This document shows, in pieces, positions 3,810-38,100 of a stretch of DNA of 57,401 nt. A program made the translations under genes and the position numbers. The notes beneath the pieces were generated by a model. That model did no database searches and was not told the origin of the DNA. It saw only the letters and a list, made by a program, of their open reading frames with translations. Within the stretch, counting starts at the first letter, position 1. Every line of letters begins with the position of its first letter. The DNA comes from a virus (Duplodnaviria; Caudoviricetes): positions 1 to 57,401 of IMG/VR virus record IMGVR_UViG_3300011013_003468; one strand, 5' to 3'.

Positions 3810-4051
3810 AAAAAATAAAAATTTATTATCAAGATTTTAAAAATGATTTTATAAAAATATCATTAAAAAATTTTATAAAATTATTTTCATTATTAATTTT
3901 AACAAAAGATAAAGATAAAATATTTTTTATTATAAATAATGAAAAATATACTATTGAACAGCTCAATATAATATTTCAAATGCAAAGTGAAAAATTTTTA
4001 AATTTAAAAAAATTTATTAAACATTTAAATAAAAATAATTTAAAAAAATAA
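3806..4051 (+). CDS. hypothetical protein, candidate immunity protein
   Basis: 81 aa; ATGA overlap with the upstream toxin-like gene. The role is inferred from position only. Confidence 0.4.
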   Translation: MKKIKIYYQDFKNDFIKISLKNFIKLFSLLILTKDKDKIFFIINNEKYTIEQLNIIFQMQSEKFLNLKKFIKHLNKNNLKK

Positions 4052-6304: not shown

Positions 6305-7181
6305 TTTAAATCCTTCTATTAATCATAAAGAAAATTTAATTAAAATGATTAAAAAATGGGAAGGTTTAAAATTAACAATTTATGATGATAATGGATATGA
6401 TGCTATAGGTTATGGGTGTCGATATTTTAAAAATTTAGATACAATAACTGAAGCACAAGCAGATTCGTTGCTAAGAGAACAATTTGATAAAAATTTAGCA
6501 ATAGTAAAAAAAAGATTCTTTGATTTAAATTATACTCAATATTTAGCATTAGCTGATATTTCATTTAATTGGGGAATCGGCAATCTAATAAAATCAAATT
6601 TAATAAAAAAAAACCAAATAGATACCAATATTCTTTTTCATTATCGAAAAGTAGATGAATTGCCTACTTATAGAAAAAGAAGAGAATATGATCTATTTTT
6701 ATTTAACTATAATTTATTAACACAAAAAACAAAAAAAATGGAAGAAAAATTCAAAAAATTATTCTTATTGTTAGAAAAAAAGAGAAATTTCATTGAGGCT
6801 TTAGAAGAAAAGCAATTTGAAACAAAAGGAATTATTGTTATTGATAATAATGAATTTGATATTAATAAATCAAACGAATATGTTATCAAAACTAAAATTT
6901 TACCTTATCTTTTATCTTTAAAAGCGGCAAATAAAGATTTAAAAGAAGCAGGAATTTCAGAGATAAAAATCAGAAATTATCCAATTGAGTCTTATATAGA
7001 AGATTCTAAAATGAAAATTAATAAATTAAAATTATCAGAATTAAAAAAGGAGTACGATAAATTATATAATAGAATATTTAATAATAAAGGAATTCCTGAA
7101 GATCTTAAAATCGAATTTAGCAACAAAGAGCTATTTAAAGATTTAGAAAATGAACTTAACAAATTAGATGAAATTGTTTAA
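6270..7181 (+). CDS. GH24-type lysozyme (aa ~20-150) in frame with a second coiled-coil protein (from M157, nt 6738)
   Basis: WEGLKLTIYDDNGYDAIGYG, ITEAQADSLL, ALADISFNWG, RKRREYDLF; hydrophobic N-terminus. Confidence 0.8.
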   Translation: MKVLITIFLITNLNPSINHKENLIKMIKKWEGLKLTIYDDNGYDAIGYGCRYFKNLDTITEAQADSLLREQFDKNLAIVKKRFFDLNYTQYLALADISFNWGIGNLIKSNLIKKNQIDTNILFHYRKVDELPTYRKRREYDLFLFNYNLLTQKTKKMEEKFKKLFLLLEKKRNFIEALEEKQFETKGIIVIDNNEFDINKSNEYVIKTKILPYLLSLKAANKDLKEAGISEIKIRNYPIESYIEDSKMKINKLKLSELKKEYDKLYNRIFNNKGIPEDLKIEFSNKELFKDLENELNKLDEIV

Positions 7182-19253: not shown

Positions 19254-19881
19254 AGAAACTATTAGAACAGAATATGATAATATATTATTAAGTATTCAAT
19301 ATTCTTTTGATGAATTAAGAGAAAATATAGAAAAATTTTTTAATATTAATTCTAAAGCTCTTTTAAAAAAAAGTAGAATGAAAGAAATTGTAGATTATAA
19401 AACTATATTTTTTTTAATTACAGAAAAACAATATCCACAAAAAAAGATAGCAGATTATCTTAATAGAAAGCGTTCAGGATTAGTAATTATAAAAAAATAT
19501 AGAATTAATAATATACGGTTTATTACTTTATATAAAAATTTTTTAAAATATTGGCTAGATAAAAAAGATAATAAAAAAATAGAAATATTTAATACTAATA
19601 ATTATATTTTTGAATTAGAAGAAGAAATTTTTAATTTAAAAAAAGATTTAAGTATTTTAAAAGAAGAAAATAAAGAATTATTATATAAAAACAAATTATT
19701 TTATATAAAAATTGATGAAATAAGATATAGTTTATTAAAATATATGTATAATAATCCTTTATATGATATAAAAAGTAATAGTGTTATAGAAAAACTAAAA
19801 AATATATTTGGATTTGATGATATCTCTTCTTCTAAAATCTACAAAGAATTAAGAAAATATAAAGATAAGGAGCTAAAATAG
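19243..19881 (+). CDS. DnaA domain IV-like HTH protein with coiled coil
   Basis: IEKFFNINSKALLKKSRMKEIVDYKTIFFLI...QKKIADYLNRKRSGLV matches the DnaA C-terminal pattern. Confidence 0.65.
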   Translation: MWYKETIRTEYDNILLSIQYSFDELRENIEKFFNINSKALLKKSRMKEIVDYKTIFFLITEKQYPQKKIADYLNRKRSGLVIIKKYRINNIRFITLYKNFLKYWLDKKDNKKIEIFNTNNYIFELEEEIFNLKKDLSILKEENKELLYKNKLFYIKIDEIRYSLLKYMYNNPLYDIKSNSVIEKLKNIFGFDDISSSKIYKELRKYKDKELK

Positions 19882-19912: not shown

Positions 19913-22900
19913 TTATTTTTTCTTTTTTTCTTTTTTCTTTTTTTCTTTTTTTTCTTTAATTAATTTTCTATCCCAATAATCTTTTGAAGGTATTGTCCAA
20001 TCTTTTTTAGTATAATTTCCTAATCCTCCATAATTAACAAAAGCAGGAATAAATGCTCTATTAGTATCTCTTAATAAAGGATGTTTATTATTTTTTGTTT
20101 TATTTAATTCACCAAAAATACTTTTTTCTATATCTCCTAATAATTTAATTACATTTTGTAACCAAGTTACTAAACTTATTTGACTATAATTATTATAAAT
20201 ATCTTTTGGCTTTGCATATAATGTAGCATTACTAATAAGATTCATTATTTTATTTTCAAAAAATAAATATAATTTATGTTTATATTTACCTTCTTCATCG
20301 TCATCATCATCCGCACCTCTTAAACTAGATAACATTAATTTAAATGCAATCATTGCTAATAATATTGATATATCAGCAATATTAGCTTGTAAATTTTTAG
20401 TATCTAATTCATTTAATTTTAAAGATTTTAAATTAGCTTGCCCATATTTTGTTGCGATTCCAAATAAATGTAATGGTGTAAATAATGATTTTTTTAATAT
20501 ATTAAAACTAACAATAGCTAATTCTTTAATAAATCCTATTTCAGTATTAACATTATTAAAAGAAGCTATTGTTGCACCTAATGCTCCTGTAATTAATGAT
20601 GTAATAGGACCTCCTATAAGACCTATAGTTGCACCAAAAATTCCTCCACTAATTGGTGTAAATGATCTATATCTACCTTTTACTTTTTTATCTTTAGTGA
20701 AAATACTTTCTTGTTCAGTAGCAAATCTTTGCCATATTTGATTTGGTAGCCATGTTTTAAATAATGATACTGCTCTACCTGCAGGATTTGATTTTAGTAA
20801 CATACCACCCAAAGATTCATAATCACCATGAATACTTGCTATTGCTTGTAATACTTTATTTTTAAATGTATTATAATTATCTCCTTTAAAATTTTCCCAA
20901 TTATCTATATTTTCTTGACTTCTAAATTCTTCTTTTAATCTCAATGTATCATTTACTACTTCAAAAGCCGTAAATTTATTACCATCAAAAATAGGAACTT
21001 TTTCACCTGTTTTTGCATTAGTTATATAAGTATCTTGTAATATTGCTAATACATCAGCACCTTGATTTCTAAATTCTATTGAAGAAATTGATATATGATA
21101 TGGTGATAATTTATGTATATTTCTAAATCTTGATTTAACAGAATTTTTTTGTAATTCATTAGATGTATCTTGAAGAATTTTATAATCTTCTATAATATGT
21201 TTTAAAATATCCCATTGTTTAGCAAAATCACTATGCTTATTTATTCTTTTTCTAAATCCTTGACTAACAAATAATTCTGCATGACCCATATTACCTGGTG
21301 TCCAATATAATCCTGATGTATCTGCAATCATATTAGCAAATTTTCCTTCAATTCTATTTGTTATAGCTGAAGAAACATTATACGCTAAACCTTTAAATAT
21401 TATCAACGATAATATACCATCTACTATTGAACCTATAGATAATCTATCACCTACATTATTTATTATATTATTTATTTTTTCTATTTCATCAATTAATTCT
21501 TTTTGTTTTGCTTTATCAGTATTTGTATTTTCTAATTTTTTTAATTCTTTTAAATAATTATTTCTAATTCCTAAAAATTTTTTTACTTCTTTAAATTCTT
21601 CTTTTGATACTAAAGCACCTGTTTGTAAAAACATAAAAAATCTTTTAAATATTTTTTTATCATAATAAGGTTTTTTTGTTTTTAAACCTGTAAATATTTT
21701 TTCACTTATTTCTTTATTTTTTCCTTTAACTAACCTATTATAAGCAAATTCCATTCTTTTATTAGCTCTTACTCTTTCTTTATCAGTTCTATTTAATAAT
21801 TTTTCTATTAAATTCATAACACCTTTTATCTTCGTATTTTTTTCTATATTAGTATAATATTCTTTTAAAGTATTCATTATAGGTTCTGTTTCTAATCTTG
21901 CATTATATGTTGCTGCTGCTGTTAATGCTGTTCTAATAATTCTTGGTATATCTTGTGAACTTTCATTTGTTATTCTATTTAATGCTATTTTATACATTAA
22001 TTCTTTTACATCAATGTTTAATATACCTATATATTTTTTTAATAAATTAATATCGGGTTTTACATTAAATTGTTCTGCTAAAAATGTTAATTGTGAATTA
22101 GTTAGATTATGAATATTATTGATAATATCTTTACCATTTATTGATTTCCAATAAATTAATAATTTATCTATAGTTGTTTTTAATTCTGTTTGTTTCCTAT
22201 CATAAAATTTTTTATTTATACCTTTATTAACTATTTCATTATCATAAATAGTTTTTGAAATAACAAAATTTTTACTAAAACTATTTAAAAAATTCTTAAA
22301 TATTGATTTCTTTTTTGAAGATATTGTTCCTTTTTTATTAGAATCTAACATTATTTCAATAAATGTATTTTCTATTGCAGGTATAGAACTAGCAGGTAAA
22401 CTATGATATTGATCAGAAAATGTAATATTTATATATTTTAATGCATCTTCTAATGCTTCCCAATAGTTATATAAATCTTCATCTTCTAAAATATATTTAA
22501 AATCTTTATTATAATATCCAGTATCTTTTTCTATTTCTTTATTTGTATATGCATCTTTATATTTTATCTTTTGCTTAGGTAAAAATGTAGTATATCTTAT
22601 ATCTAATGTATATCCATTATCAGAAAGACCATGATTTTTTTCAAAATATTTAGCTACATAAAATGGATTAGATAATTCGTTTTTATATTTTAAATAATTT
22701 TTAATTTTTTCTTTATGCTCTTCATCATCTTTAATTCTTCCATCTATTAATTCTTCACTAACATTAGATTTAGCTCTAAATTCTTCAATATTTTCTATTA
22801 TTTCTTTTATTATTTTATTATATAATCTTGGATTAAGAATTTTTTTTAAATTTTCAGTATATTCTTTATCTTCTTCTAAAAATTCTTCAAATTCTGTTCC

Positions 22901-25900
22901 TTTATATTTTTCTACAATATCAGTTAATTTATTTATATCTATTATATTGGCATTCTTTAATAACCACCTATATTTTGGTTTAACATTTTTTTCTTTTATT
23001 ACTTTATTTTTAAAATCTTTAAACCATTTAGGGCTAAATATATTTATTAATTTACCTGTTTTTGTTCCATCTAAATTCTTTTCAAAAAATATATCATAAG
23101 ATGTTGCTGTAATTCCTAAACTTTTATATTCCTTTAATTTCTTTTCTACTTTTAATTGAACTGTATCTAATTTATTTAATACTTTAGCCATATCACCATT
23201 AGCTTCATCAATAGCCTTTCTCATTTCGCTTAACATTATTTGTGGAATAAGACTATCTTCTGAAAAAGTATTTGTAGATAAATTTTGCATCATCATATCC
23301 CAAATACTAATATCTGGTTTATTTTTTATTAATTTTTCTATTGTAAGTCCTTCAAAATTTTTTAATAATGGTGAAGTTGATAATATTTCATTGACTTTAT
23401 CAGCTAATATATTTTTAAGTTTATTTTCTATACCTATAAAATCATCTTTTATTTTATATAATAAATCTTTTATTTCTTTTAATGATTCATCTACTCCTAT
23501 CATTTTTAATAATTCTTTCGTAAATAATAAATTCTTATTATCTATCTCAAAATTTCCAATATTTTTATAAAAATTTATAATATTTTGTATTTCAATTTTA
23601 TTTTTAATTGGATCTTTCATTAAAATATTCTCAATTAAATATTTATGATCATTGATCATACTATTTAAAAATTTAATATAATCTACATTTTTCTTTTTTA
23701 ATAATTCATATATATTATTTAAATTTTCTATTATATGATATAATTTAGATATTTCTGTATCTAATTCTTTTATCTCTTTTGGATTACTATTTCTTTTTTT
23801 AATTCTTAATCTATTTATTCTTTGTTCTAATTCTTTTATATTAGTATTTAAAATATTTTTAAAATTATTTTTTAAATCAATTATATTTGAATTTAAAGAT
23901 AAAGGTAAAAGATCTTCTTCATCTAATGTATATAATGTAGGAACAAAATCATCACTAAAATTTCTTTCTATAATATCATTATTATTCATTACTTTTTTTA
24001 TATATTCTTTTGATGGCGCTATTACTATTTCGTTTGTATTATTATAAAAATCATAATAAACTATTCCAGAACCATAATCCATATTTATTTTAGATGCTAC
24101 CAATTCACCATTTATACCTTTTTTAATAATTAATGAATCATCTTCTATTCTATCTAAATTATTTCTATATCTATTAAAAATATCATTTATAATTAATTTT
24201 TTTATTCGTTCTTTTTCATTTTTATAAGATTTTTGATTTGGATATGGGATTGTTTCAGTAGGATAATCTAAATCAATTCTTAATAAAAATGCATCAGCTA
24301 AAGTTCTTCTTAATCTTTCTTTTGTTGCTTTTGCTAAATTATTAAAAGATTTTATAATCCAGTGAATAAATGTTTTCCACCATCTATTAGCTTCACCTTT
24401 TTGTAATATAACTTGATTTGTTACTTCTTCTACTAATTTTTCTTTACTTCCCCATTTTTCAATACCTTCTCTCACAATAGGTGTATCTTTAAACCATTCT
24501 AAATATTGATGTACATACTGATATGGTAAATAATATTCATCTTCTTTTTTATCAGAATTATCAACTATTGCAAATAATGCATTTAAATTATTTTTATTAT
24601 CAATATCAAATTTTATATTTTTTAAATTTATTTCTGGATATAATTCTTCTAAAATAGTAGTTATATTATTATTTATTTGTTCTTTAATATCTTCTGATTT
24701 TTGATAAAATATATTATCGTTAGATTCATTAGAACTTAAATCTATTTTTTTATTACTATTTAAAACAAATTTTGTTAATTCTTCTAATGTAGTATTAGGA
24801 TTGATATTTTTTGAATCTATTTCTGATAAATTAAATAATTGTTTTATATAATCTATTAAATTATTCCAAAACATTTTAATTTTATCAATCAAATTTTTAT
24901 CTTTTTGTTTATCTAATTTATTTTTAGCATATAAATCAATAGCTCTTGCTATATATTCATGATCTTTATTAGAAGTATAGTTTTTATCTACATAATCAAC
25001 TACTTGTTTATTACTTTTAGCTTCTTCTAATAAATTATTATATAATTCAGGATTAGTCTTTTCTATTTGTAATAAAAAAGGATGTGTGAATATCTCGTGT
25101 ATAGCACTTGTTTTATCAGCTTTTCCTTTTACTAAATAAGCTTTTTTAGTTTCGGAATTATAAAACCCTGATGGTATATCACTATTATTTTCTTGATAAA
25201 AATTTTGTCCTTCTAATTTTTTATTTATTTGATATTTATTTTTTAAATAATTAGATAACCATTCTAAAGCATCTTTTCGATTTGTAAATTCTAAATTAAT
25301 TTGAGCTTCCATAGCAGCTTTAACGATATTACCTAATTCCTTTCCAGTTTTAAATCCTAAAGCTAATAAATCTTTTCCTGTTATTAATGGTTTTATTTTT
25401 TTACTATCTCCAAATTCTTTTTTAAATTCTTTAAGTAATTCATTAAATTTTTTAATTGTTTCTGGTACAGGTGTATTTTTATTATTTCTGCCTAACATAT
25501 CTGCTTCCATTAATCTTACTAATTCTTCAATAGATGCACTTTCTAATCTTTTTGATAACTTTATAAAAGCAGATTTTTGTCCTTTTATATCTTGAATAGA
25601 TGTTATAGTAGCATGTGCTAAATGTTCTTTTATAATAGGAATGACTTTTTTTATTATAGAATTTCTTATTCCTAATTTTTTTAAAAATTTTTCACTAATT
25701 TCTGCACTTTTTGCTTCATGACCTCTTGATGTTATTACTTCTCTATTCTTTTTTGGTACAAATGTTTTTTTTGTAGTATCTATTTTTCCAATATCATGTA
25801 GTAATGCACTAAACATTAAAACTGCTTTTTCATCTGCATTTAAATTTTCTCTTTTAGCAATATTATTTGCAACATTCATTACCTGTTTAGTATGTTCTTC

Positions 25901-28900
25901 TACATCCCCTTCAGGATGATACTCAAAATCTTGTTCTATATCTTTAAGTTTTATTAATTTTGGGAAATATTTTTTACCAATACCTGTATCTCTTAAAAAA
26001 TCAAATATTAATTGAGGATTACTCCCTTTAATAGCCCATTTTAACCATTCTTGTTCTATTCTTTCTTTAGGTAATTCATCTATCATATTTTTTTCTACCA
26101 TATCACGGATTAAATTAGCTGTTTCTGATGCCAATTTATATCCCATTCTACTTTGAAATTGCATAGCTCTCAAAATTCTCAATGGGTCTTCTTTAAATTT
26201 ATCGCTAACATGCCTTATAATACCTTCTTTTAAATCTTTAATTCCCCCATAATAATCGTACAAAGTTTTGCTTATAGGATTATACCCTAAACTGTTCCAA
26301 GTAAAATCACGTCTTTCTGCTGCTTCTTTTATAGTGATATTTTTATCAAATTCTGTTTTGAATCCTGTATATCCTTTACCTGTTTTATTTTCTCTTCTTG
26401 GTATAGAAAAATCAAACGGCTCTTCTATATCTACTAATTCAGTAGTACCTTTTTTATAAGGTATAAACTTTAATATTCCAAAACTTTTTCCTACTTCATT
26501 TACTTTACCATATTTCTCTAATATAGATTGTAATTCTTCTAAGGATACATTGTATATTTCTATATCAATATCTTTAGGTTTTTTACCTAATAAAGCATCT
26601 CTTACAGCTCCTCCAACAATAAGAGAGTTCATATTCTTATTATTTAATTCTATAAGTACAGGATTAAGTAAATTTAATAATTTTTCATTTATTGGTATAT
26701 CTACTTTTTGTTTTTCTATATTTTTTAAATTTTCTAACTCTTTTATTATTTTTAATTTCTGTTCAAAAACATTTTTGCTTGAATTAAGAATTTCTTTAGC
26801 ATTTTCTTCACTAATTAATTCAACAGGAATATTAAACCTATTACTTAAATCACTAGCAAAATTTTCTAAAGTATTTTCTATTTCAGATTTAGTTACTTTT
26901 TGAAATGGAAATTCATCTACATCAAAAAGATTATTATTATTATTAATAGGTTTTACTTTACTCCTAATTAAAATTCTTGGATATTTACGCATTCCTTCTT
27001 TTAATGCTGCTATTTTGACATTAGCTTTTATTTTAGGATCATCTTCTTCATTTTCATTATTTATTACTTCTTCATAAATATCATTTATATCTTTTTTTAA
27101 ATTATTATAAGTTATAGTAGGTTTTTTTTCACCATTAACTTCCAAATCTTTTAATTTTTTTTCAATTACTTCAACTTGTTCTTTTAATTCTTTTATTAAT
27201 TCATTATTTTTATTACTATATTTTTTACCATAAGATAATAATTTTATTCTTTTTTTTAATTTAACCATTTTTTTTATTAAAGTATAACTATTATTATCAT
27301 TTTGCACTTTAATTTTAGGTTCAATTAATTTGCCATATCTTTTATCTAATATATCATTAATACCATCAATTAATTTTTTAGTAGAATAAGGTACATCATC
27401 ATCATATTCTATTCTAAAATTATTATAAGTAAGAGCTATAGCTAGTTCATTATGATCGTATGTTAATTTATTTATTATATTAGTTAAATTTGGTTGTACT
27501 GCATTTAATGATTTTGATTCAGGTGCTTTAGTATAACTAATCCCTGCTGTTTCTTTTTTTAAATATTTATCAAAGTAAGCATACGAATCCCAAACACTTC
27601 CGCTATGAACATCTCTGTTTGCAGCCCATTTAATATCTTCTGATTTAGGAAATATTTTAATTCTTATTTTATTACCAAAACCTTCGAGTTTAGTAATTCT
27701 TTTATTAATTGGTTTAGTAAGTGCTGATACAATAAATTCTATTTTTGCTTTTTTATTATCTTCAATATTATTTAATAAATTTTGAAGCATTAATTCTAAA
27801 TCAAAATTTGAATATCCTCCTACAATTGAATAAAATCCTTGCCCTCTACTATATATTTCTTCCGGATTATATATAATATTATTAGTTTTTAACCATTTTT
27901 TTATAATTTTTATAGATAAGTTAAAATCTTTGTTTATTTCTGCAAACTTTTCTAATTCATCATCTTTAAATATATCTTCATTTTCAATTTCAAATTTATC
28001 AACTGGTATTACACTATCATCATAATCATCTAGATTTATTTTTTTTAATTTAAATAATTTAGTAATATGATTATTTGCTTCTTGATAAGTTTTAAAAGTT
28101 TTATTATCAGGTGTAGTATATATTACTTCATAACCTGGTAATATTAGTTTAGAATTTCTATAAGCTAATAAATCAGCTAAATTACCTAAAGTCATATCTG
28201 GTCTTAATTCTTCTATTTTAACTTCTCTTTTAGAAAACAATGATTTCATATAATCAGTCATTTGTTCCCATAATTCTTTTAATAGAGAAATTAAATTTTT
28301 ATCTTTAACTTTATCTAATCTATCAGCAATATATTCACCTAATAATTGAACAATAGCTTCTTCTTGTTGCTCTTCTAAAGAATATTTTTTTTCTACAATT
28401 TTTACATTTGGAAAATTTTCAGAATTTTTTATGTATTGTTTAAATGTATAATAATCTCCAAATTCTATTTTTTTTTCATCTCTATATTTAAAAGATAGTT
28501 CTTTATATTTGTAGTATTTTTTAACTCTATCTAAAACTTCTTTACCTCTACCAGTTTCAAGTTCTTTAAGTAGGCTTTGATATAAAGATGTTTCTTCATT
28601 AAAGTTACTAATTGGTTCACTTTTAATATCTTCAAGCATCTGCTTATAAGATGCAGCATGTCTGTCAATAGTTTTATCAGAAACAGCAGCTCTATTTTCA
28701 CCTCTCTCTAGTTGTGCTTTAATTCTTTTTTTAGCTAATTCGGGATTTAATTCCATTAATTTATATTGAATATTAGCTGTAGGTATTTCTTTTTTAATAG
28801 CTCTTATGAATGGTAATCTCTTTTCTTTCGTTAAATTAGTAGTATCAAATACCACTTGTTTACCTTCTTTTAAAGCATTTATTGCTCTTTTAGCAGCTTC

Positions 28901-31900
28901 AGCATAAATTTCTTTATCTTTAGATTTATCATTTATATTACCTGTAAATTCTACTCTCATTGCATCAGGTTCTATAACTACTAAATTTTTTTGAGGTAAA
29001 GATTTGATAAATGTACTTTTACCACTTCTACTTGTTCCTATAGGTAATAATACATCAAACTTATATTGTCTATTCTTAATAGCTCTAATAATAGGATGTC
29101 CTAATATTTCGTGTATAGGAGTATCTAATGTTGCATGATTTAAATTTATTATTGCTGTATTATCTTTTAAATAACCTTTATAATTTTTATTATTATCTAA
29201 CCATTCTTCTGCATCTTCCTTTGAATTAGCATAATATATATCTTTATTTTTAGATTTTATTTCATTGTCTATTACAATCCATTGCCCATCTCTATATATT
29301 ATTTGTGGATTTTCAAATTCTATATCTAAACCAATTCTATAAGCCATTCTTTCAGCTAAATCTCTAATAGTTTTTTCAGAAGCTACATAATCTTCATCTG
29401 ATTGGTTAGTATTGTTTTGGTAATAAATATTATCATCTGAATTTTTCTTTACATTATTATAAGCTTCCTTTAAAGCTCTCATAAATCCTCCATTAGGACC
29501 TTCCCAAAATTTATCTCCAAATCCTTCATGTGTTGATTTATTTAAATATTCTAAACCTCCTCTTTCATCTATACCTTTTATTAATTCAGGATGCTGCTCA
29601 AATTTTAATTCGAGAATACGAACTATTATGTTAAAAGATTTAGATATATCTGCTTTAAATCTTCCTCTTGGTTTAAATACTCCTTTATTTCCTTGTCTAT
29701 AAGCAAGATCATCAAATTTACCTGATTTAAAAGTTTGATAAGCGTGTTCTGAATTTTTAAATATATATGTTTTTCCTGATTTTGTTTTTATTTTAATTTG
29801 CAAATTATTTCCAGGATTAGTTAATTTTCTAGCAAATTTAGAGCCTTTACTTGTTATATTTTCTCCTTTTATATTTTGTTTATTTTTATTTTCATTATTA
29901 TTTAAAATTAAAGGACTTAAATCTGCATCATTTATTTTATCTTCAAAAACATTATTATCTAAATTTATTAATCCTATATTTTCTTTTTTTAGATTTAATT
30001 TGTCTTCTTCTGCTAAATATAATTCTAATTTCTTTTCATTTATATTTTCTTTTTTTAAATTTTCTATATTAGATTTAAATTTATATATATTAGTTTTAAT
30101 TCTAACTTTTGATTTAGCTCTTGTTATAGCTGTATATATCCATCTATTTTTATTCCATTTATCAGATATCCAATCAGCATCTATATATACATTATTCCAC
30201 TCATTACCTTGAGATTTATGTGCTGTTATACTATATCCATAAGTAGCTATATTAACTTTTTTATCCCAAATATTTTCTTTACCATTATAAAAAGAAAATG
30301 GCTGTTGATGAAAAAATTCATTTGTTAATAATTGAGATCCATGTAATGATGGAATAGGTAATTCAGGAAATAATAAGGTATAAGTGCTAACTTCTTTATT
30401 ATTTAATATTGTATCATGATATATCAATATTCCTTTTAATTTTATATTTCTTGGATTAAATTCAGTACCAACATTTATTTCTTCTTCAAATTTTTTTATT
30501 ATTTCTGGATTTTTTACAGTATATATGTCACTGTTCATAAATGCATTGTTTGAAACAGAAATTAATTTTTCATTATTGTTAATAGCATTATTAGCTTTAT
30601 CACCATATTTAACTTCTCTTATTTTTCTATTATAAAAAAGTCTATTTTTATTTGTTGATACTATTACAACATATTCTTTATTATTTTTAAAATCATCAAC
30701 TAACTCTTGTCCAAAATTACTTACTTTTTTAAATTCATCAGAATTAGGATTATATATATTATCATTATTTGTTCTTAAATCTGTAGCTGATAATAATATA
30801 TCACCGTCTTGTCTTTTTACTTCTTGTAATTCATATTTATTTTCTTTTTTAAATATTTCTTTATTCCATTTAAATAATTCTGGATTTTTGCCTACAGGTT
30901 CTAATTGGAAACCATCACCCAAAAATATTATTTTATTATTACCTAATTTAGCTTCTTTTATTAAATCATTTAATATTTTTTCATCTATCATAGAAGCTTC
31001 ATCAATAATATATACTTCATCATTACCTAATCCTTTATTAATCCATTCACCTGTTTCTGGATCTGGTGAACCATATAAAACTTTATGTATTGTAGAAAAA
31101 TTATTATCATCTTTATCAGCATTGAATTTTTCTTTTAATCTTTTAACAGCTGCATTTGTTGGTGCTAATAACATTCCTTTTGAATAATTAGCTATATTTT
31201 CTGCAATAGTTGTTTTACCTGTTCCTGCAAAACCCGCTAATAAAAAGAAATTATCATTGGAATTTAAAAAATTTTCTATTTTTAATAAAGCATTCTTTTG
31301 ATCATTAGTATATATAATTTTATTTTTTCTCATACCTAAAATAGAACCTGATATATTTCTATTTAATTTATTTAATATTTTTTCTCTTTGACTTCCACTT
31401 TTATATACTTCTCGACCTTTTGATGTTTTATTTAAAGAAATAATTCTATTATCGTTTAAAATAAAATATTTACTATTGTTATATTCTATAATTCTATTTT
31501 CATCATATTGCTGCTTAATAAGAACTTTATTTTTAATTGTTTCATCGGTAACTTCTTTACCATTTTTATAAACCATTTTACTATCAGGCATTATTATTAT
31601 TTCATATTGGTCTATTTTAAATGTATTAGAAATAGATTTTTTAGTTTCTGATTTTTCAGATTGCTTTGATATTTCTGTTTTTTCTAAATTATTGTTTAAA
31701 TATTCTATTGCTTTATCATAAGAATCTATAAATTTATTACTATTAATAGCTTTAAATAATAATATCGGTTTTTTAAAATTTTTAGAAGCATATTTTAATA
31801 TTTTATTAATTATATTTTTTTTTAAAAAATCTTTTGATAATTCTGTTAATTGATTATTTATATTATTAATATTATCATTATAATTTATCTTTTCATCATC

Positions 31901-32128
31901 TAATATTCTATTTATTATATCTATTTTATTTGTAGGAATATTTTTACCTTTTGTTATATTCCATATTTTATATGCAACATTTATTGCAAATAAATCATTA
32001 TCTTTTCTCTTATTACGTAATTTTACTGACTTAAATTCTTCTATGCTTAATGGCTTTCCATCAAACATTTTAACAATTGAATTAAAATCATTTCTTACTT
32101 CTATATCATCTATTTGTGGACAAAACAT
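19913..32128 (-). CDS. 4071-aa polyvalent virion (ejection) protein: SF1B helicase, NADAR, zincin-like peptidases, polynucleotide kinase, CCA-adding enzyme/HD, membrane-spanning C-terminal region
   Basis: AGFAGTGKTT/DEASM/TAHKSQG/YTAITRA; FKNSEHAYQ..KFEQHPEL..DKFW; HEILGH; GTSRSGKST..DTTN; VGGAVRD..DID..RRDFT..EDPLR..LLHDIGK; HEIFTH; glycine-rich hydrophobic helices; adjacent to the virion RNAP. Confidence 0.88.
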   Translation of the reverse strand: MFCPQIDDIEVRNDFNSIVKMFDGKPLSIEEFKSVKLRNKRKDNDLFAINVAYKIWNITKGKNIPTNKIDIINRILDDEKINYNDNINNINNQLTELSKDFLKKNIINKILKYASKNFKKPILLFKAINSNKFIDSYDKAIEYLNNNLEKTEISKQSEKSETKKSISNTFKIDQYEIIIMPDSKMVYKNGKEVTDETIKNKVLIKQQYDENRIIEYNNSKYFILNDNRIISLNKTSKGREVYKSGSQREKILNKLNRNISGSILGMRKNKIIYTNDQKNALLKIENFLNSNDNFFLLAGFAGTGKTTIAENIANYSKGMLLAPTNAAVKRLKEKFNADKDDNNFSTIHKVLYGSPDPETGEWINKGLGNDEVYIIDEASMIDEKILNDLIKEAKLGNNKIIFLGDGFQLEPVGKNPELFKWNKEIFKKENKYELQEVKRQDGDILLSATDLRTNNDNIYNPNSDEFKKVSNFGQELVDDFKNNKEYVVIVSTNKNRLFYNRKIREVKYGDKANNAINNNEKLISVSNNAFMNSDIYTVKNPEIIKKFEEEINVGTEFNPRNIKLKGILIYHDTILNNKEVSTYTLLFPELPIPSLHGSQLLTNEFFHQQPFSFYNGKENIWDKKVNIATYGYSITAHKSQGNEWNNVYIDADWISDKWNKNRWIYTAITRAKSKVRIKTNIYKFKSNIENLKKENINEKKLELYLAEEDKLNLKKENIGLINLDNNVFEDKINDADLSPLILNNNENKNKQNIKGENITSKGSKFARKLTNPGNNLQIKIKTKSGKTYIFKNSEHAYQTFKSGKFDDLAYRQGNKGVFKPRGRFKADISKSFNIIVRILELKFEQHPELIKGIDERGGLEYLNKSTHEGFGDKFWEGPNGGFMRALKEAYNNVKKNSDDNIYYQNNTNQSDEDYVASEKTIRDLAERMAYRIGLDIEFENPQIIYRDGQWIVIDNEIKSKNKDIYYANSKEDAEEWLDNNKNYKGYLKDNTAIINLNHATLDTPIHEILGHPIIRAIKNRQYKFDVLLPIGTSRSGKSTFIKSLPQKNLVVIEPDAMRVEFTGNINDKSKDKEIYAEAAKRAINALKEGKQVVFDTTNLTKEKRLPFIRAIKKEIPTANIQYKLMELNPELAKKRIKAQLERGENRAAVSDKTIDRHAASYKQMLEDIKSEPISNFNEETSLYQSLLKELETGRGKEVLDRVKKYYKYKELSFKYRDEKKIEFGDYYTFKQYIKNSENFPNVKIVEKKYSLEEQQEEAIVQLLGEYIADRLDKVKDKNLISLLKELWEQMTDYMKSLFSKREVKIEELRPDMTLGNLADLLAYRNSKLILPGYEVIYTTPDNKTFKTYQEANNHITKLFKLKKINLDDYDDSVIPVDKFEIENEDIFKDDELEKFAEINKDFNLSIKIIKKWLKTNNIIYNPEEIYSRGQGFYSIVGGYSNFDLELMLQNLLNNIEDNKKAKIEFIVSALTKPINKRITKLEGFGNKIRIKIFPKSEDIKWAANRDVHSGSVWDSYAYFDKYLKKETAGISYTKAPESKSLNAVQPNLTNIINKLTYDHNELAIALTYNNFRIEYDDDVPYSTKKLIDGINDILDKRYGKLIEPKIKVQNDNNSYTLIKKMVKLKKRIKLLSYGKKYSNKNNELIKELKEQVEVIEKKLKDLEVNGEKKPTITYNNLKKDINDIYEEVINNENEEDDPKIKANVKIAALKEGMRKYPRILIRSKVKPINNNNNLFDVDEFPFQKVTKSEIENTLENFASDLSNRFNIPVELISEENAKEILNSSKNVFEQKLKIIKELENLKNIEKQKVDIPINEKLLNLLNPVLIELNNKNMNSLIVGGAVRDALLGKKPKDIDIEIYNVSLEELQSILEKYGKVNEVGKSFGILKFIPYKKGTTELVDIEEPFDFSIPRRENKTGKGYTGFKTEFDKNITIKEAAERRDFTWNSLGYNPISKTLYDYYGGIKDLKEGIIRHVSDKFKEDPLRILRAMQFQSRMGYKLASETANLIRDMVEKNMIDELPKERIEQEWLKWAIKGSNPQLIFDFLRDTGIGKKYFPKLIKLKDIEQDFEYHPEGDVEEHTKQVMNVANNIAKRENLNADEKAVLMFSALLHDIGKIDTTKKTFVPKKNREVITSRGHEAKSAEISEKFLKKLGIRNSIIKKVIPIIKEHLAHATITSIQDIKGQKSAFIKLSKRLESASIEELVRLMEADMLGRNNKNTPVPETIKKFNELLKEFKKEFGDSKKIKPLITGKDLLALGFKTGKELGNIVKAAMEAQINLEFTNRKDALEWLSNYLKNKYQINKKLEGQNFYQENNSDIPSGFYNSETKKAYLVKGKADKTSAIHEIFTHPFLLQIEKTNPELYNNLLEEAKSNKQVVDYVDKNYTSNKDHEYIARAIDLYAKNKLDKQKDKNLIDKIKMFWNNLIDYIKQLFNLSEIDSKNINPNTTLEELTKFVLNSNKKIDLSSNESNDNIFYQKSEDIKEQINNNITTILEELYPEINLKNIKFDIDNKNNLNALFAIVDNSDKKEDEYYLPYQYVHQYLEWFKDTPIVREGIEKWGSKEKLVEEVTNQVILQKGEANRWWKTFIHWIIKSFNNLAKATKERLRRTLADAFLLRIDLDYPTETIPYPNQKSYKNEKERIKKLIINDIFNRYRNNLDRIEDDSLIIKKGINGELVASKINMDYGSGIVYYDFYNNTNEIVIAPSKEYIKKVMNNNDIIERNFSDDFVPTLYTLDEEDLLPLSLNSNIIDLKNNFKNILNTNIKELEQRINRLRIKKRNSNPKEIKELDTEISKLYHIIENLNNIYELLKKKNVDYIKFLNSMINDHKYLIENILMKDPIKNKIEIQNIINFYKNIGNFEIDNKNLLFTKELLKMIGVDESLKEIKDLLYKIKDDFIGIENKLKNILADKVNEILSTSPLLKNFEGLTIEKLIKNKPDISIWDMMMQNLSTNTFSEDSLIPQIMLSEMRKAIDEANGDMAKVLNKLDTVQLKVEKKLKEYKSLGITATSYDIFFEKNLDGTKTGKLINIFSPKWFKDFKNKVIKEKNVKPKYRWLLKNANIIDINKLTDIVEKYKGTEFEEFLEEDKEYTENLKKILNPRLYNKIIKEIIENIEEFRAKSNVSEELIDGRIKDDEEHKEKIKNYLKYKNELSNPFYVAKYFEKNHGLSDNGYTLDIRYTTFLPKQKIKYKDAYTNKEIEKDTGYYNKDFKYILEDEDLYNYWEALEDALKYINITFSDQYHSLPASSIPAIENTFIEIMLDSNKKGTISSKKKSIFKNFLNSFSKNFVISKTIYDNEIVNKGINKKFYDRKQTELKTTIDKLLIYWKSINGKDIINNIHNLTNSQLTFLAEQFNVKPDINLLKKYIGILNIDVKELMYKIALNRITNESSQDIPRIIRTALTAAATYNARLETEPIMNTLKEYYTNIEKNTKIKGVMNLIEKLLNRTDKERVRANKRMEFAYNRLVKGKNKEISEKIFTGLKTKKPYYDKKIFKRFFMFLQTGALVSKEEFKEVKKFLGIRNNYLKELKKLENTNTDKAKQKELIDEIEKINNIINNVGDRLSIGSIVDGILSLIIFKGLAYNVSSAITNRIEGKFANMIADTSGLYWTPGNMGHAELFVSQGFRKRINKHSDFAKQWDILKHIIEDYKILQDTSNELQKNSVKSRFRNIHKLSPYHISISSIEFRNQGADVLAILQDTYITNAKTGEKVPIFDGNKFTAFEVVNDTLRLKEEFRSQENIDNWENFKGDNYNTFKNKVLQAIASIHGDYESLGGMLLKSNPAGRAVSLFKTWLPNQIWQRFATEQESIFTKDKKVKGRYRSFTPISGGIFGATIGLIGGPITSLITGALGATIASFNNVNTEIGFIKELAIVSFNILKKSLFTPLHLFGIATKYGQANLKSLKLNELDTKNLQANIADISILLAMIAFKLMLSSLRGADDDDDEEGKYKHKLYLFFENKIMNLISNATLYAKPKDIYNNYSQISLVTWLQNVIKLLGDIEKSIFGELNKTKNNKHPLLRDTNRAFIPAFVNYGGLGNYTKKDWTIPSKDYWDRKLIKEKKEKKKKEKKKK
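25250..26690 (-). other. domain: class II tRNA nucleotidyltransferase (CCA-adding) with HD domain (approximate bounds)
   Basis: VGGAVRDALLG-KDIDIE, PRRE, RRDFTWNSL, EDPLRILRAMQF, ERIEQEW, HPEGDVEEHT, LLHDIGK, LITGKDL. Confidence 0.92.
28600..29065 (-). other. domain: polynucleotide kinase-like P-loop kinase (AAA_33/Pnkp kinase; approximate bounds)
   Basis: PIGTSRSGKSTF, EPDAMR, VVFDTTNL, lid AKKRIKAQLERGENR. Confidence 0.8.
29440..29870 (-). other. domain: NADAR/YbiA-like hydrolase (approximate bounds)
   Basis: LTNP, FKNSEHAYQTFK, ILELKFEQHPEL, DKFWEG..GFMRALKE. Confidence 0.75.
30090..31320 (-). other. domain: Dda/RecD2-like SF1B helicase (approximate bounds)
   Basis: GFAGTGKTT, APTNAA, STIHK, IIDEASM, GDGFQLEPV, EVKRQ, YSITAHKSQG, YTAITRA. 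Confidence 0.92.
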
Positions 32129-32158: not shown

Positions 32159-35100
32159 TTAACAATTTTCATGTTCATTATCTAATATATTTTTTAATAT
32201 AGATAATTTTTTATTTATTTCTTCTTCTTCTTTATCTTTTTCTTTTTTTATATTCTTATTCATATTTTCTTCAATTTTATTTTCTTCAATTTTATTTTTT
32301 TCAACTTTATCTTCTTTTATTTCTTTTTCCTTTATATTTGATTCGGTTTTCTTATTATCTATTAAATTTTCAGGATAATATTCATTATATACAAAATTCA
32401 TAATTCTTATTGCTGCTTCTTCAGCTAATGAACCTTTTTTAAATATTCCTAATTTATTTAAAAAGTTTCTAATTGCATTAACAAATTTACTAATAATATT
32501 TTTCCCTTTATATTTTTTAGAATTTAATAATTGTATAAAATTTTTATTAGTGAACATACCTGTTATAAATTCTCTAACATTATATAAAGGATAAAATGCT
32601 TCTTCTTCAGGTGTTAAACTGACTTCTAAATTAGATAAATTATTAATACCTTGAATATGCATCTTATCTAATTTATTTTTCATAGAGATATAATAGGGAT
32701 TAGTACTAAATAATTTTAATGCTTCTATATATATATTTCCTAATTCTTTAACATGATCTGGTGCATTAGGATCTAATATTAATCTTCCATTTGATTTTAT
32801 AAAATATTTTTTTAATTCATCACTTGTTATACTATGAATATATTCATGAAGTAAATTTATTAATAATTTACTTGGTGTATTCGATTCATTTGGATTTAAT
32901 ATAATAGTACCATTTTTATAAGTACCTTTTGCGTTTAAAGAACTATCAAATTTAATATGTATTGTTGATTTATTAAATTTAATAAATTCTGTTATCAAAT
33001 CTTTAAATCTTTTATTATTATCATTTAATATTGATAATATATATCCTAACAATTCTTGTAATTGATCATTATCAATATAACTTTTAATTTTTTGTAATTT
33101 ATCTTCTTTTGTAGTATTACTAATAGATGCTTCTTTTGATTTTTCTATTTCTTTTTCAATATCTATTGCTAATAAACTATTTTTATTAAAAATTTTAATA
33201 TGACCTCTTTTAATCGTAGGTATTTCTATATATTTATTATTTATTAATTTATATAATTTATATCTTTTATTTTTATCATCTGTTTTTTGGTATTTGGCTA
33301 TAAATTCAGGAACTAAATCTGGATTTTCAATAGCTTGTTGTTCTAATTCTTTAATTTTATTATCATCTTTAACTTTATATGCGTATTCAGGATAATTTTG
33401 AAATAATTGTGTTATATAATTTGTTATATTTGTAGATAAATTAATAAAATCATTATAATTAAATAATTCTTTAGTAGCACCTATATTTTTAAAATAACTA
33501 AAAGGAATATATTTTGTAAATTCAACAGGACCAGTTTGTGGATTAGTTAATAAATTATAATTTATTAAATCTTGTGCATAATCTCTACTTGTATAAAAAC
33601 TTTCTATTTTATAATAATATTGTGGTTCAGTATATCCTGTATATCCCAATTCATTTAATTCTTCTACACTAAGTTTCCCATAATTAATTACTTTATAACT
33701 TTTACCATTTAATTTAAATTTTCCTCTTTCATTAATTTTTAAATCTAATTTATTTTCTTTACTTAATATTACATTAGCATTTGAAGAAATAATAGGTTCA
33801 AAAATTTTAGAATCTAATTCTTTATAATTAGCAGTATCATAATTATAATCTGGCAATTCTATATTTGAAGCTATTAACTCATCTATTGCAGAATATAAAG
33901 CATCTTCATATAGTAAAGATCCATTTGTGTTTACAAATTCTATTGTTGAATATTGACCACTCTTTTTAGCAATTTTAAAATCTAATCTTTTTAATAATTC
34001 ATTAGAAAATATCGGATGATTTCTATTTTTTAATAATTCTGAATATAATGCTAAAGATATATTATTTTTGGTATCTAATAACAATCTATTTCTTTCATTT
34101 TCTATAGTACCAGAATAAAAAGGTAAAATATCATCAGTTAATAAAAAATTTTTAATATTCGCCCAAAATATTTTACTATATTCTTTTTTCTTGTATTTAT
34201 TAGTTGCATTTGATGATGCTAAAAATTTATTTAATTCATTGTGTAATAAGAAATTAAATTCAGGATAATAAGAACTATAAAATTTTATAGTTGTAGACAA
34301 TCCTTGTAGTACCATATTAGATAAATAATTACTAGGTTTTATAAGAGTATTATATATTTCTATAAAACCCATATCTAAATACTTATTCTTATCAACAGTT
34401 GATGTAATTGGTATTACTTCACCTAATAAAACATTAGGATTTTCAAACAATCCGTTTGGAGATATTAAATATTCTAAATTATTAACAAGATCTTTTATTT
34501 CTGTAAAATCACCTGCCAAACGCTTAGATATATCCAAAGCTGTTACTGTATTTAATAATACATCATTATATTGACTCAAATTAAGAAATGTTTTTAATAT
34601 TATAGCTTGAAATTCTTTATTAGGATTAGTTAAATTATTTATTAAATCTTCTACATTTATAATTTTATCAGTATTTATATTATCAAAATTTTCTATGTTG
34701 TATTTTTTTAATATTTTTTCTAATAATTTACTTTCAGCATTGGCTTCATAATCTGAACTAGCAGCTTTTAAATTTTCTATCTCTTTAACATATTCTTTAA
34801 TAATAGGTTGTGATAAAAAATAATATGATAAATAAATATTACCTTGTGAACTTTTTGCTTGATCAAAGCCTGCTAATGTTAATAATTCATCTACATTTAC
34901 TGTATGTTTATTTAAATTAACTTTACCTAATACATTAGCTTTCATATTATCTACCGCTGTTTGTACTCTTTCTTCTATTACTTCTGTTATATTTCTATTA
35001 CCATCTAAAGTTTTTATTTTTCCTAATTTACCATCAAAACTTATAATGTTACCTTCAATATCTTTAAATTTTGGAAATATACTTGGATCTGATACTTTTA

Positions 35101-38100
35101 AAGTTTCATCTATTTGTTGTAATAAAGAACTAAAATTACTTTCTAAAGCGTAAACACCAATTAATATAGAACCAGATGAACCTTTTTTCATTGTATCATT
35201 ATGATATTCATCATCAAATATTCCAAAATTATATTTTGTTCTACCTTTATTTATTAATTTATCTATTGTATTTGCTTGATTTATAGCTTCATCTAATGGC
35301 AATACCTTTAATATTTTTCTTTGTACTTCTTTTTGTGGTGAAGCTAATATTTGATTATACATATATATAATTTCATTTTCAATAGATTTTTTAATTTCTT
35401 CTTTTTTTTCTTTTATTTCATTTTCAATAGATTTAATTTTTTTTCTTTGTTCTTTTTTAGATAATTTTTTAAATTCATAATTTTCTTTTACATTTTCACC
35501 ATTCTTCTTAGCTTCTAAAAAATCTTTTATAAAATCTGATTTATCTAATTTATATAAATATTTATATTTTTTATATTTATTTTTTAAATCATTTAATTCT
35601 TCTGTTAAATTATCTATATTAACATCTTTATTATATTTTGTTATTTTACCATCTTCATTTATATCATACCAGTAACTATATGTAAATTCTTTATCAAAAT
35701 CAAAATCTAATCCTTTTGTTTTTAATAAATTATCAGGAACAATTATAACATCTCCTTGTACTTCAGGTAAAAATCCAGCTATTTCAATTGCTGCACTTAA
35801 TGAATGACTTGATGTTGGTATTCTTGTACTAATTAATTCTAATAATTCATCATCTATCATTCCTGGTTTTAAAACTTTCCTTTTAGTTTTTTCATCTATT
35901 TCCCAATATTTTTCATCTGTAATATCTATTAACTTATTATTTTTATCTTTAAAACGTGATGGAACAAAAACTTGGAATCTTTGTAAAACTTTTTTACCAT
36001 TTTTATCTTTTATATAAGAATTTTGTAATCCTTTTTCAAAATCAAATTTATTAGTATATATAATATTATCTAAATCTATATTTTTAGTATCTGCTATTTC
36101 CCACCCTGCTGATGATGAAGCTATATAAGAATATCCAGGAAATTTTAATTTTAAAATATTATTTCTAACTATTGATATTAATAATGCTTGAAATTTTTTA
36201 CTGTCATTAAGCATCCATAAAGGAATATCAAAATATATTTTTTGTTCACCATTTTTTTCTTCTTTTGTTTTATAACTAATACTATCAATATCACTTGTAT
36301 TTAAATTTCTACTTTTAGCTTCTTTTTTTATAAGTTTTATTAAATTTTTTACAAAAATCTTATTATTAGCATTATTATTTAATGAAAATCCTAATTCGTC
36401 TTTTAATTGCTCTGTTATTATATTTACTAAATTTATAAGATATTCTTCATGTTTTTCTCTTAATTCTTTACCTGTAATTGCTTTATTATGATAATTAAAT
36501 ATAAAATTAGTAAAACCATTGCCAAACATTAATTTACTTAATTGAGTTACCATACTTACAGTATTTGGCTTATTTTTACCTGCTTTATACGGTGCTTCTT
36601 GTTGTATTCTAAAATAATTATTTGATAAAACTAAACTTGCTTTTTTTAATTCTTCTATTGTTAAATCTCTAATAGTATTATTAGGATGATATATATTTAA
36701 TGGTTCTTTAATATTCCCTAATTTTGTAGCAGTACTATATGAAGCAATAACATTTTTATTACTATCGTTTTCTAATTTTTCTAATGCTCTTCTTAATTTA
36801 TTTATTTCTTTACCAATAGTTGTCTGTGGTATTAATACTATTGCTGCTGATTTTATATAAACTAATCTATTAGCATCATTTTCTTGATCAGGTATAAATC
36901 CTCCATATACAGGTTTTTCATTTTGTAATACTAAATTTAATTCTTCTTCTGATAATAAATCTTCTTTTTCTAATTTTAGACCTTTATTTTCTTTTTCAAT
37001 TTGTCTATTAATTTTTTCTAATAATTTATCATAAGTTTTTCTATCTATCTTACCATAAGTTAATAAATGATTTAAAGCAGTTCTTGCTGTTTGATATTCT
37101 TGAGCATCAGTATCTTCTATTTCCATAAAATATGATAATATATTTTTACTATCATATTGTAAAATAAGATTTTTTAGATAATCAATACCTTCTCTTAATT
37201 GTGATTCTGTATCTTTAGATACATTTGGTAATTTATTTTCTAATAATAATGTTAATTCATTTTGTGTTTCTTTTAATAATTTAGTTAATTCTGTAACTTT
37301 ATTACCTATTTCATTACCATAATGTAATGATGCTATATATCCTAAATTATCTGATAATTTTATATTATCTTTTAAAAATACTCTTATATGACTTGAATTT
37401 CTTGAATTTTCAGAAACTATACCAGGAGCTATTAAAATTGCTAAACGTTTACTAACATTATCATAAGCTTTATTTAATACACTTCTAATATTAGTACTTT
37501 CCCACGGTTTTTCTTTATTATCCAATCCTTTTGTGTATAATGCTAAATCACCTGCATATAATTGGAATATAGCAGAATTATGCAAAATATCATTTACTAT
37601 ATAATCTGCTACTGCTATTTGTGTATTTTTTAAACTTTTAAATTCGCCTCCTATTTTTGATATATAATTATTAGAAAATTTGATAGATTTTCCCTTTTCA
37701 TCTATTATGCCTAGTTCTACTAATTTTTTTAATTTTTTATTATATTTAGATAGTAACATACTATTTAAAATATTATAAAAATTTTGTCTTGAATCTTCTA
37801 TAACATTATCCAAATTACCTTTTGAAAATAATTCTTGTATATGTTTTCCATCTATTCTAACATTATTTAATTCCTTAATTGAAAATATTAATCCTGATTC
37901 TTTATAATTAGCAATATTGGGATCTTTATTTTCAATAAGAATATTATACATTCTTTTAATTTCAGGAACAACTACTTGTTCATATATTACTTTTAAAATT
38001 TTATCATCAAATTTTTTTAATTTTTTATTATTTTCAAAATTCAAATGACTTTCTTTTATTTTTAAAGCAGGAAGTAATAATAATAATTGTTGTGTTTTAT

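Follow-up and report, generated by a model that had tools for sequence, protein, structure and literature searches.

The stretch of phage DNA analyzed here, referred to as the window, comprises all 57,401 nucleotides of the IMG/VR record IMGVR_UViG_3300011013_003468 and raises the question of why a CCA-adding enzyme (Cca) with an HD phosphohydrolase domain lies in the middle of a giant phage protein, here called P0001. About an even chance is given to the answer that P0001 is a polyvalent, virion-delivered tRNA 3'-end repair enzyme, of which the packaging, the activity, and the defence countered are predicted.

The record consists of this contig only, with an estimated completeness of 63%, and the base composition of the window is about 20% G+C. 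Up to position 19881 the genes lie on the plus strand and serve replication and lysis, with a DNA polymerase, helicases, a primase, Sak4, and an endolysin among them, and a block of very large genes runs on the minus strand from 57211 down to 19913. The gene for P0001 is the last of this block and starts 30 nt past the stop of the upstream giant gene (4211 codons, 32159-44794). The features needed first are as follows:

19913..32128, minus strand: P0001, multi-enzyme carrier protein, a single open reading frame (ORF) of 4071 codons, last gene of the minus-strand block
25244..26635, minus strand: complete Cca module, residues 1832-2295 (head, neck, body, HD, and C-terminal helical extension), from family matches, AlphaFold2, and Foldseek
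26213..26620, minus strand: nucleotidyltransferase head, residues 1837-1972, comprising motifs A, B, and C as well as the flexible loop (Pfam PolyA_pol, E 3e-21)
25499..25900, minus strand: HD phosphohydrolase domain, residues 2077-2210 (Pfam HD, E 6e-10)

Identity of the Cca Module in P0001

The original prediction had read 25250-26690 of the minus strand, which corresponds to residues 1813-2293 of the single ORF, as a complete class II nucleotidyltransferase joined to an HD domain. Every motif listed in that prediction was located, and Pfam, PHROG, NCBIfam, BLASTP, and the structural model agreed on the assignment.

At the family level, the PHROG profile phrog_2244 ('tRNA nucleotidyltransferase') matched residues 1832-2277 with positions 2-384 of its 392 (E 4e-72). 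The top NCBIfam model was NF008137, 'multifunctional CCA addition/repair protein', with 195.6 bits (E 1e-57). Models of the poly(A) polymerase PcnB scored lower, reaching 107 bits for TIGR01942 (cut-off 305.65) and 100 bits for NF008634 (cut-off 702); with both scores below their cut-offs and an HD domain present, the module falls outside PcnB. BLASTP against E. coli K-12 Cca yielded 28% identity (E 2e-47), spanning both the nucleotidyltransferase and the HD parts.

Motif A was found as GGAVRD (1839-1844) and DIDIE (1853-1857, with the carboxylates D1853 and D1855), aligned with E. coli Cca and kept in 22-23 of the 23 sequences of the nearest clade. The flexible loop PRRENKTGKGYTGF at 1910-1923 was aligned without gaps to the E. 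coli Cca loop ARTERKSGSGYTGF, and the comparison of RRENKTGKGYTGF with RTERKSGSGYTGF of E. coli K-12 Cca likewise showed no gap. Motif A precedes this loop and motif B follows it; enzymes of the CC-adding type have it in a shorter form. Motif B (RRDFTWN, 1939-1945), DYYGGIKDL (1958-1966), motif D (EDPLRILR, 1980-1987; EDxxR, the template that selects the nucleotide), and motif E (ERIEQEW, 2022-2028) complete the nucleotidyltransferase part.

The HD part contains HPEGDVEEHT (2071-2080), LHDIGK (2110-2115), GHE (2136-2138), EHLAH (2168-2172), and EAD (2208-2210). Its metal ligands, situated within or next to the Pfam HD domain, are H2071, H2079, H2111-D2112, H2137, and D2210, all aligned with ligands of E. 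coli Cca, together with H2169. Across the three nested clades of the tree described below, the HD ligands were conserved in 23 of 23, 52 of 54, and 149-156 of 158 sequences, and the catalytic residues of both active sites in 22-23 of 23, 52-54 of 54, and 146-157 of 158.

An AlphaFold2 model of the module, built on 57 stand-alone relatives, reached a predicted local distance difference test score (pLDDT) of 93.6 and a predicted template modeling score (pTM) of 0.92, and the sea-horse fold with head, neck, body, and tail was present in it. The best Foldseek matches were solved class II CCA-adding enzymes from A. thaliana, T. maritima, B. stearothermophilus, and a psychrophile (E 9e-17 to 1e-14), with template modeling (TM) scores of 0.57-0.75 by target length. 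By its sequence and modeled fold, the module is a complete nucleotidyltransferase of class II and E. coli Cca type with an HD phosphohydrolase, for which the corresponding activity is predicted.

At the base composition of the ORF itself, a stop codon would be expected about every 9 codons, and the probability of a frame open for 4071 codons was approximately 3e-205. The G+C content at third codon positions (GC3) was uniformly low, 0.05-0.10, in all ten ORF segments, the Cca segment included. Because of this open frame and the even GC3, the fusion is, as far as the sequence can tell, neither chance nor a gene-calling artefact.

The Cca segment showed slightly higher values than the remaining ORF (GC 0.263, GC3 0.10). 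A recent gain of Cca from a GC-richer donor was considered and rejected, as these values are barely above those of the rest.

Embedded Cca Modules in Other Giant Phage Proteins

A word-indexed search covering proteins of 2239-7125 amino acids yielded 31 other giant proteins with the module, 2252-6058 amino acids in length and with identities of 26-65%. An exhaustive HMMER search returned 36,470 proteins at E ≤ 1e-3, the best 150 representatives of which were examined. These representatives were combined with the giants, seven named references, and a small number of cluster members into a set of 177 matched sequences. The whole module is covered in 159 of them, 75 being embedded (more than 150 flanking residues) and 84 apparently stand-alone, in a sample that favours relatives of the query and in which short proteins may be fragments; the other 18 are partial modules and were left out of this count.

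The fusion had been predicted to be unusual. In general, this view had to be abandoned in light of the 31 giants and the 75 embedded modules among 159, whereas for the lineage of P0001 itself, with a Cca match in none of 50 related records, it held. Embedding is thus recurrent among giant phage proteins and rare in P0001's own lineage.

A FastTree phylogeny was calculated from 166 modules and 483 profile columns and rooted on E. coli PcnB. The clade that holds the P0001 module has 23 members, every one of them embedded (support 0.98), and is nested in a clade of 54 with 46 embedded and 8 stand-alone members (support 1.00). E. coli Cca and three phage Ccas fell outside the 158-member clade holding the P0001 module (support 0.99). 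A phylogeny had been proposed in the original prediction for telling Cca from poly(A) polymerase; in this tree the clade of the module is separate from the PcnB root. A diversified lineage of Cca modules lives inside giant phage proteins, and the papers searched contained no account of it.

Compared with the E. coli multifunctional Cca (NF008137), the P0001 module shares the two-domain architecture, all motifs, the loop length, and the loop sequence GYTGF. It differs in lying within a 4071-residue protein, in an extra C-terminal helical extension of about 75 residues, and in belonging to a separate clade. The stand-alone phage Ccas, such as those of Escherichia phage Av-05 (AII27611), Sinorhizobium phage phiM7 (gp269), and jumbo phages, also combine Cca and HD parts and are read as repairing tRNA 3' ends. 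In contrast to P0001, they are separate genes of about 410-480 amino acids located among metabolism genes, with 26-32% identity to the P0001 module, and the three included in the tree group with E. coli Cca.

The position of the module in its carriers ranges from N-terminal to C-terminal, and usually the module alone is shared, sometimes the kinase too. The carrier P0028 is a tape-measure protein (PhageMin_Tail, E 2e-25), and P0011 is a Kinase-PolyVal/ART-PolyVal protein, with further PolyVal carriers indicated by precomputed Pfam data. In three carriers of 5.7-6.1 thousand residues, a region matching an RNA-polymerase-like profile (E 1e-28, 2e-27, and 6e-19) was found downstream of the module, at a distance of about 320 residues in P0016 and P0017 and about 316 in P0018.

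Kinases resembling bacterial polynucleotide kinase (Pnkp) were found in 9 of the 177 sequences. The kinase is inserted within the Cca module itself in P0008, P0014, P0026, P0027, P0029, and P0043 and, judging by coordinates, in P0013 and P0047. A nucleoside-diphosphate kinase (NDK) lies between the neck and the HD part of Cca in P0039, according to Pfam positions; in P0007, where the module has an insert of 644 residues, NDK appears in the precomputed Pfam list and its position was assigned by eye. From their sequences, a nested kinase or NDK would be fitting partners of an enzyme whose substrates are CTP, ATP, and RNA ends.

Further insertions were noted. The nested kinase mostly occupies the Cca head, between the beta-strand and the loop motif, forming a nested two-enzyme domain. 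The head domain of P0083 contains an intein with a LAGLIDADG endonuclease. Eight otherwise stand-alone Ccas of 611-788 amino acids (P0063, P0070, P0076, P0080, P0084, P0094, P0104, and P0170) carry an insertion of 100-270 residues between neck and HD, which gave no Pfam match in the seven scanned, i.e., all except P0170.

Gene Context and Composition of the Carrier Protein

The context of P0001 is defined by its upstream neighbor and by its own C-terminal part:

32159..44794, minus strand: P0002, giant virion-structural protein of 4211 amino acids with a two-barrel RNA-polymerase-like core (phrog_16227, E 4e-139)
35693-35707, minus strand: DFDFD motif of P0002, residues 3030-3034, from a motif scan
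19952..24217, minus strand: conserved C-terminal module of P0001, residues 2638-4059, orthologous to a protein of about 1,600 amino acids in FpV4-like phages

The PHROG label 'virion structural protein' was obtained for both the 1520-aa and the 4211-aa genes of the block. By sequence, P0002 matched nothing in PDB and Pfam, and fold comparison alone succeeded. The core of P0002 (residues 2651-3450) was modeled on 24 IMG/VR homologues with a pLDDT of 76.3. Relatives of the RNA-polymerase-like region were retrieved from IMG/VR with a two-sequence alignment, a single-query search having found none. The only PDB match of the model at E ≤ 0.001 was 6vr4 (E 1.4e-16, probability 1.00, TM score 0.55 by query length), the virion-packaged RNA polymerase of the crAss-like phage phi14:2.

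The DFDFD motif of P0002 corresponds to the phi14:2 motif DFDxD, which, according to a passage of the phi14:2 preprint, forms the catalytic site in proteins packaged into virions. Its invariance among the 24 homologues is in part built in, as the motif was included in one of the search patterns. Phage FpV4 encodes a 'putative structural protein' of 4287 amino acids that is a homologue of P0002 (29% identity, motif DYDID). Because of this homology, FpV4-like Flavobacterium phages probably carry a crAss-type virion RNA polymerase, as sequence and model suggest.

The correspondence with FpV4 extends to P0001. Residues 2884-4067 were aligned with FpV4 ALN97146 (1596 aa, same gene position) at 23% identity (E 1e-41), and the gene order, expressed in amino acids, is 1961, 598, 732, 4287, and 1596 in FpV4 versus 1520, 645, 828, 4211, and 4071 in the window. 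In the 50 of 75 related IMG/VR loci covered by the genome search, an ortholog was found in 26, with an ORF of 1559-1698 amino acids in 24, 1817 in one, and 2308 in one. Ten metagenomic relatives of the C-terminal module measure 1519-2139 amino acids and are without a Pfam domain; a single-query search of IMG/VR with this module returned no relatives.

The closest comparison is provided by P0175 (2812 aa), which shares residues 2638-4059 (42% identity over 1494 columns) as well as a 110-residue module, and whose kinase is 69% identical to that of P0001. It carries ART-PolyVal and SprT-like domains in place of the helicase and Cca of P0001. Since the ortholog measures 1559-1698 amino acids in 24 of the 26 records, and since P0175 keeps the C-terminal module and differs in the array, the N-terminal part of about 2,600 residues is, by sequence comparison, an enzyme array of variable content attached to a conserved protein, which accounts for about 1,430 residues of P0001; polyvalent proteins show this pattern (PMC5512222).

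The original prediction had described the enzyme as embedded in a virion or ejection protein. Its embedding in a 4071-aa ORF stands; the assignment to the virion is plausible rather than proven, and comes from the gene context, namely the position at the end of the block after the RNA-polymerase-like gene and the C-terminal ortholog at the same position in FpV4-like phages.

Apart from Cca, the array of P0001 comprises the following features:

30050..31867, minus strand: Dda/RecD-like SF1 helicase region, residues 88-693 (phrog_325, E 2e-62)
28643..29050, minus strand: P-loop kinase of the polynucleotide-kinase (bacterial Pnkp) type, residues 1027-1162 (Pfam AAA_33, E 6e-17)
25082..25099, minus strand: HEIFTH, residues 2344-2349, the second HExxxH motif, part of a helical module right after Cca; relatives have HExxH, e.g., HEMAH in P0175
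24266..24589, minus strand: conserved module of about 110 residues, residues 2514-2621, from BLASTP, common to P0175, P0014, P0026, and P0027

Several conflict-type enzyme domains (helicase, Pnkp-like kinase, nucleotidyltransferase, and HD) are thus present in one phage ORF. In the helicase region, Pfam AAA_30 was matched at 276-448 (E 4e-21) and UvrD_C_2 at 631-677. The kinase matched TIGR04075 (bacter_Pnkp) at profile positions 12-148 with E 1.3e-8, far under the whole-protein cut-off. Its best PDB sequence matches were the 171-residue chains 4jst and 4gp7 (E 1e-3), which we take to be the kinase domain of Clostridium thermocellum Pnkp; GSSGSGKST/GTSRSGKST and SSD/EPD were aligned with 4jst.

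The kinase comes after a helical module bearing an HExxxH motif at residue 1006, and by eye it looks inserted in this module. Self-BLAST at E 1e-3 revealed no internal repeats in P0001, the two HExxxH modules being alike by eye only. The motif YQYVH of the 110-residue module is degenerate, its relatives having HEYAH or HEFAH. Judged by sequence, the HExxxH and YQYVH modules may be variant or inactivated metallopeptidases, a type of module with a possible role in the processing of polyvalent proteins. The first HExxxH motif reads HEILGH (29096-29113, minus strand), and relatives carry HExxH instead.

Nothing significant was found in Pfam (E up to 1) or NCBIfam for residues 1-275, 690-1030, 1160-1835, and 2280-2900, and residues 1330-1800 gave no usable Atlas match. 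Atlas leads to LPD38/39 in P0001 were weak. A NADAR/YbiA-like domain at about 740-920, suggested by eye from 'NSEHAYQ', was dropped, being without Pfam, NCBIfam, or PDB-sequence support.

Proposed Function and Competing Explanations

In the proposed mechanism, P0001 would be packaged alongside the other giant virion proteins and, upon ejection, enter the cell with the DNA. The HD domain would then remove blocking 2',3'-cyclic or 3'-phosphate groups, and the nucleotidyltransferase, if active as predicted, would restore the missing C-C-A using CTP and ATP at entry or shortly afterwards, with host tRNAs as the presumed substrate. Translation capacity would thereby be kept or restored against a putative host defence that cuts back or blocks the 3' ends of tRNAs.

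In the original prediction, the fusion pointed to defences acting on tRNA acceptor ends early in infection, a link that stays conjectural. Attacks of this kind have been reported. Cas12a3 cleaves tRNA 3' CCA tails, one of the enzymes being from a Bacteroidetes bacterium, and the authors, who know of no viral answer, speak of 'yet unknown means of resistance' (PMC12851939). Enzymes of the toxSAS group are described as pyrophosphorylating the CCA end.

A broader view is possible but doubtful, according to which several unrelated phage lineages would equip their particles in advance with an enzyme that repairs tRNA 3' ends and so reverse tail attack before phage gene expression. The carriers would be ejected giants, i.e., virion RNA polymerases, tape measures, and polyvalent proteins, and the attacks reversed would be CCA clipping of the Cas12a3 type or blocking of 3' ends by toxins. 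If this were true, embedded Cca would be the viral answer sought by the authors of the Cas12a3 study.

A complete, conserved CCA-rebuilding enzyme in proteins that probably accompany the DNA offers a testable candidate answer to tRNA-tail immunity, and the activities of polyvalent proteins would widen from DNA- and protein-directed enzymes to repair of the translation machinery.

Polyvalent proteins combine many conflict enzymes in one giant polypeptide and are predicted to enter with the DNA (Iyer et al. 2017, PMC5512222). P0001 resembles them in that relatives of its Cca lineage or of its C-terminal module have ART-PolyVal and Kinase-PolyVal, and differs in being itself without a PolyVal-signature Pfam domain. 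The string 'CCA' has 0 occurrences in the main text of the polyvalent-protein paper, where nucleotidyltransferases are treated as protein modifiers (PMC5512222). Stand-alone phage Cca genes and polyvalent proteins are already known; the literature searched yielded no description of CCA-adding enzymes as parts of virion or polyvalent proteins or in a counter-defence role.

A precedent for a packaged large enzyme is provided by virion RNA polymerases. As described for the virion RNA polymerases of phi14:2 (gp66) and N4 and for Thermus phage P23-45, where the polymerase is fused to a tape measure, these enzymes are packaged and act before phage gene expression, and P0002 is, by its model, a structural relative of gp66. 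They differ in delivering transcription, whereas P0001 would deliver tRNA-end repair, if delivered as predicted.

Another comparison concerns phage T4, whose Pnkp/Rnl tRNA repair answers the anticodon nuclease PrrC. There, separate early proteins heal and seal the anticodon loop, and a ligase is needed. P0001 contains a putative Pnkp-like kinase domain; unlike in T4, the target of P0001 would be the 3' tail.

Several points weigh against virion-delivered repair of tRNA ends. No virion proteomics or structural evidence for P0001 or its orthologs was found in the literature, the FpV4 ortholog is annotated just as 'hypothetical protein', and no PHROG or Pfam family was matched over the C-terminal module. 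A protein of 4071 residues may be too large for a podovirus-type channel unless unfolded or processed; no protease was identified in P0001, whose HExxxH motifs deviate from the HExxH of relatives. Pfam, PHROG, and NCBIfam scans revealed no RNA ligase in the window, which also yielded no tRNA gene, and no PolyVal-signature Pfam domain (ART-PolyVal, Kinase-PolyVal, MuF, or LPD) was detected in P0001.

Two further points concern the Cca module itself. A Cca match was found in 0 of the 50 related phage records, 16 of which are at least 90% complete, in a search that recovered the window's own Cca copy as a positive control; the module is therefore dispensable for this lineage. The score of 195.6 bits missed the NF008137 equivalog cut-off of 451 bits, which makes the module a distant relative and not an equivalog by NCBI's rule; its functional assignment is accordingly taken over from a remotely related enzyme.

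Among the alternatives, the best supported, although unlikely in our estimate, is that P0001 is made late and acts in the producing cell, perhaps as a polyprotein cut into enzymes, without being packaged. Cca would then keep the tRNA pool chargeable or mature phage tRNAs lacking an encoded CCA. Peptidases for such processing might be the HExxxH/HExxH modules next to the enzyme domains, and the packaging of P0001 is a prediction. Moreover, stand-alone phage Cca genes, the existence of which the original prediction had noted, are common: 495 phage records matched, mostly annotated as tRNA nucleotidyltransferase, and a jumbo-phage survey classes Cca among RNA repair genes (PMC7824862).

A purely late role is at odds with the location of the gene, which ends the virion-protein block directly after the virion-RNA-polymerase-like gene, and with the C-terminal module, a conserved member of that block. 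The fusion of the same Cca lineage to a tape-measure protein and to RNA-polymerase-like giants also speaks for delivery with the virion. As for maturation of phage tRNAs, no tRNA genes were found in the 57-kb window, in a record from which about a third of the genome is missing.

Clearly less probable is a Cca fold with another task, either poly(A)-like tailing of host or phage RNA or degradation of immune signals (cyclic nucleotides or 2',3'-cyclic phosphates) by the HD domain. The best PDB match by sequence was indeed E. coli poly(A) polymerase I (E 1e-27), limited to head and neck. A passage of the polyvalent-protein paper proposes that 2H phosphoesterases degrade signals instead of repairing RNA (PMC5512222), and the giants P0030-P0032 combine a nucleotidyltransferase head with 2H phosphoesterases without the HD part, as judged by precomputed Pfam and coverage.

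The detailed comparisons favored Cca over such a task. The NCBIfam Cca model exceeded PcnB by 195.6 versus 107 bits, the alignment with E. coli Cca spans the HD part, which is absent from PcnB, and the loop sequence GYTGF is common to Cca, not PcnB. Foldseek ranked CCA-adding enzymes over E. coli poly(A) polymerase, which appeared at rank 15 with a lower TM score, and the tree separated the module from the PcnB root. Both active sites are conserved, not HD alone.

Finally, a fusion created by chimeric assembly or by read-through of separate genes is extremely improbable: the window is a metagenomic contig found in one sequencing run only, possibly its source run, which counts against the preferred reading too, but the frame is open on either side of the module throughout its 4071 codons despite a stop expected every 9 or so, GC3 is even along the ORF, the database entry for the protein likewise has 4071 amino acids, and the 31 other giants with an embedded module come from independent assemblies.

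Minor features of P0001 and its relatives were also recorded. A Cys at residues 2-6 (MxC or MxxC) was observed in 11 of 12 database members (P0001, P0175, and P0176-P0185) and in FpV4 ALN97146; the first residues of P0001 lie at 32114-32128 of the window, and Cys is scarce in these proteins, at 0.17% of all residues. Among the Cca-bearing giants this signature was seen in 5 of 30, and among the other Cca matches in 14 of 134, mostly in those nearest the window's clade. Judging by its sequence pattern, it could serve as a leader or as a signal for packaging or processing.

A Kyte-Doolittle scan of P0001 revealed one prominent hydrophobic segment, with weaker ones at residues 3563-3583 and 3837-3855:

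20312..20392, minus strand: strongest hydrophobic, membrane-span-like segment, residues 3913-3939

Outside the minus-strand block, an endolysin-like gene (phrog_7) was located at 6270-7181 of the plus strand among the replication genes, right after the DNA polymerase gene, the end of which it overlaps.

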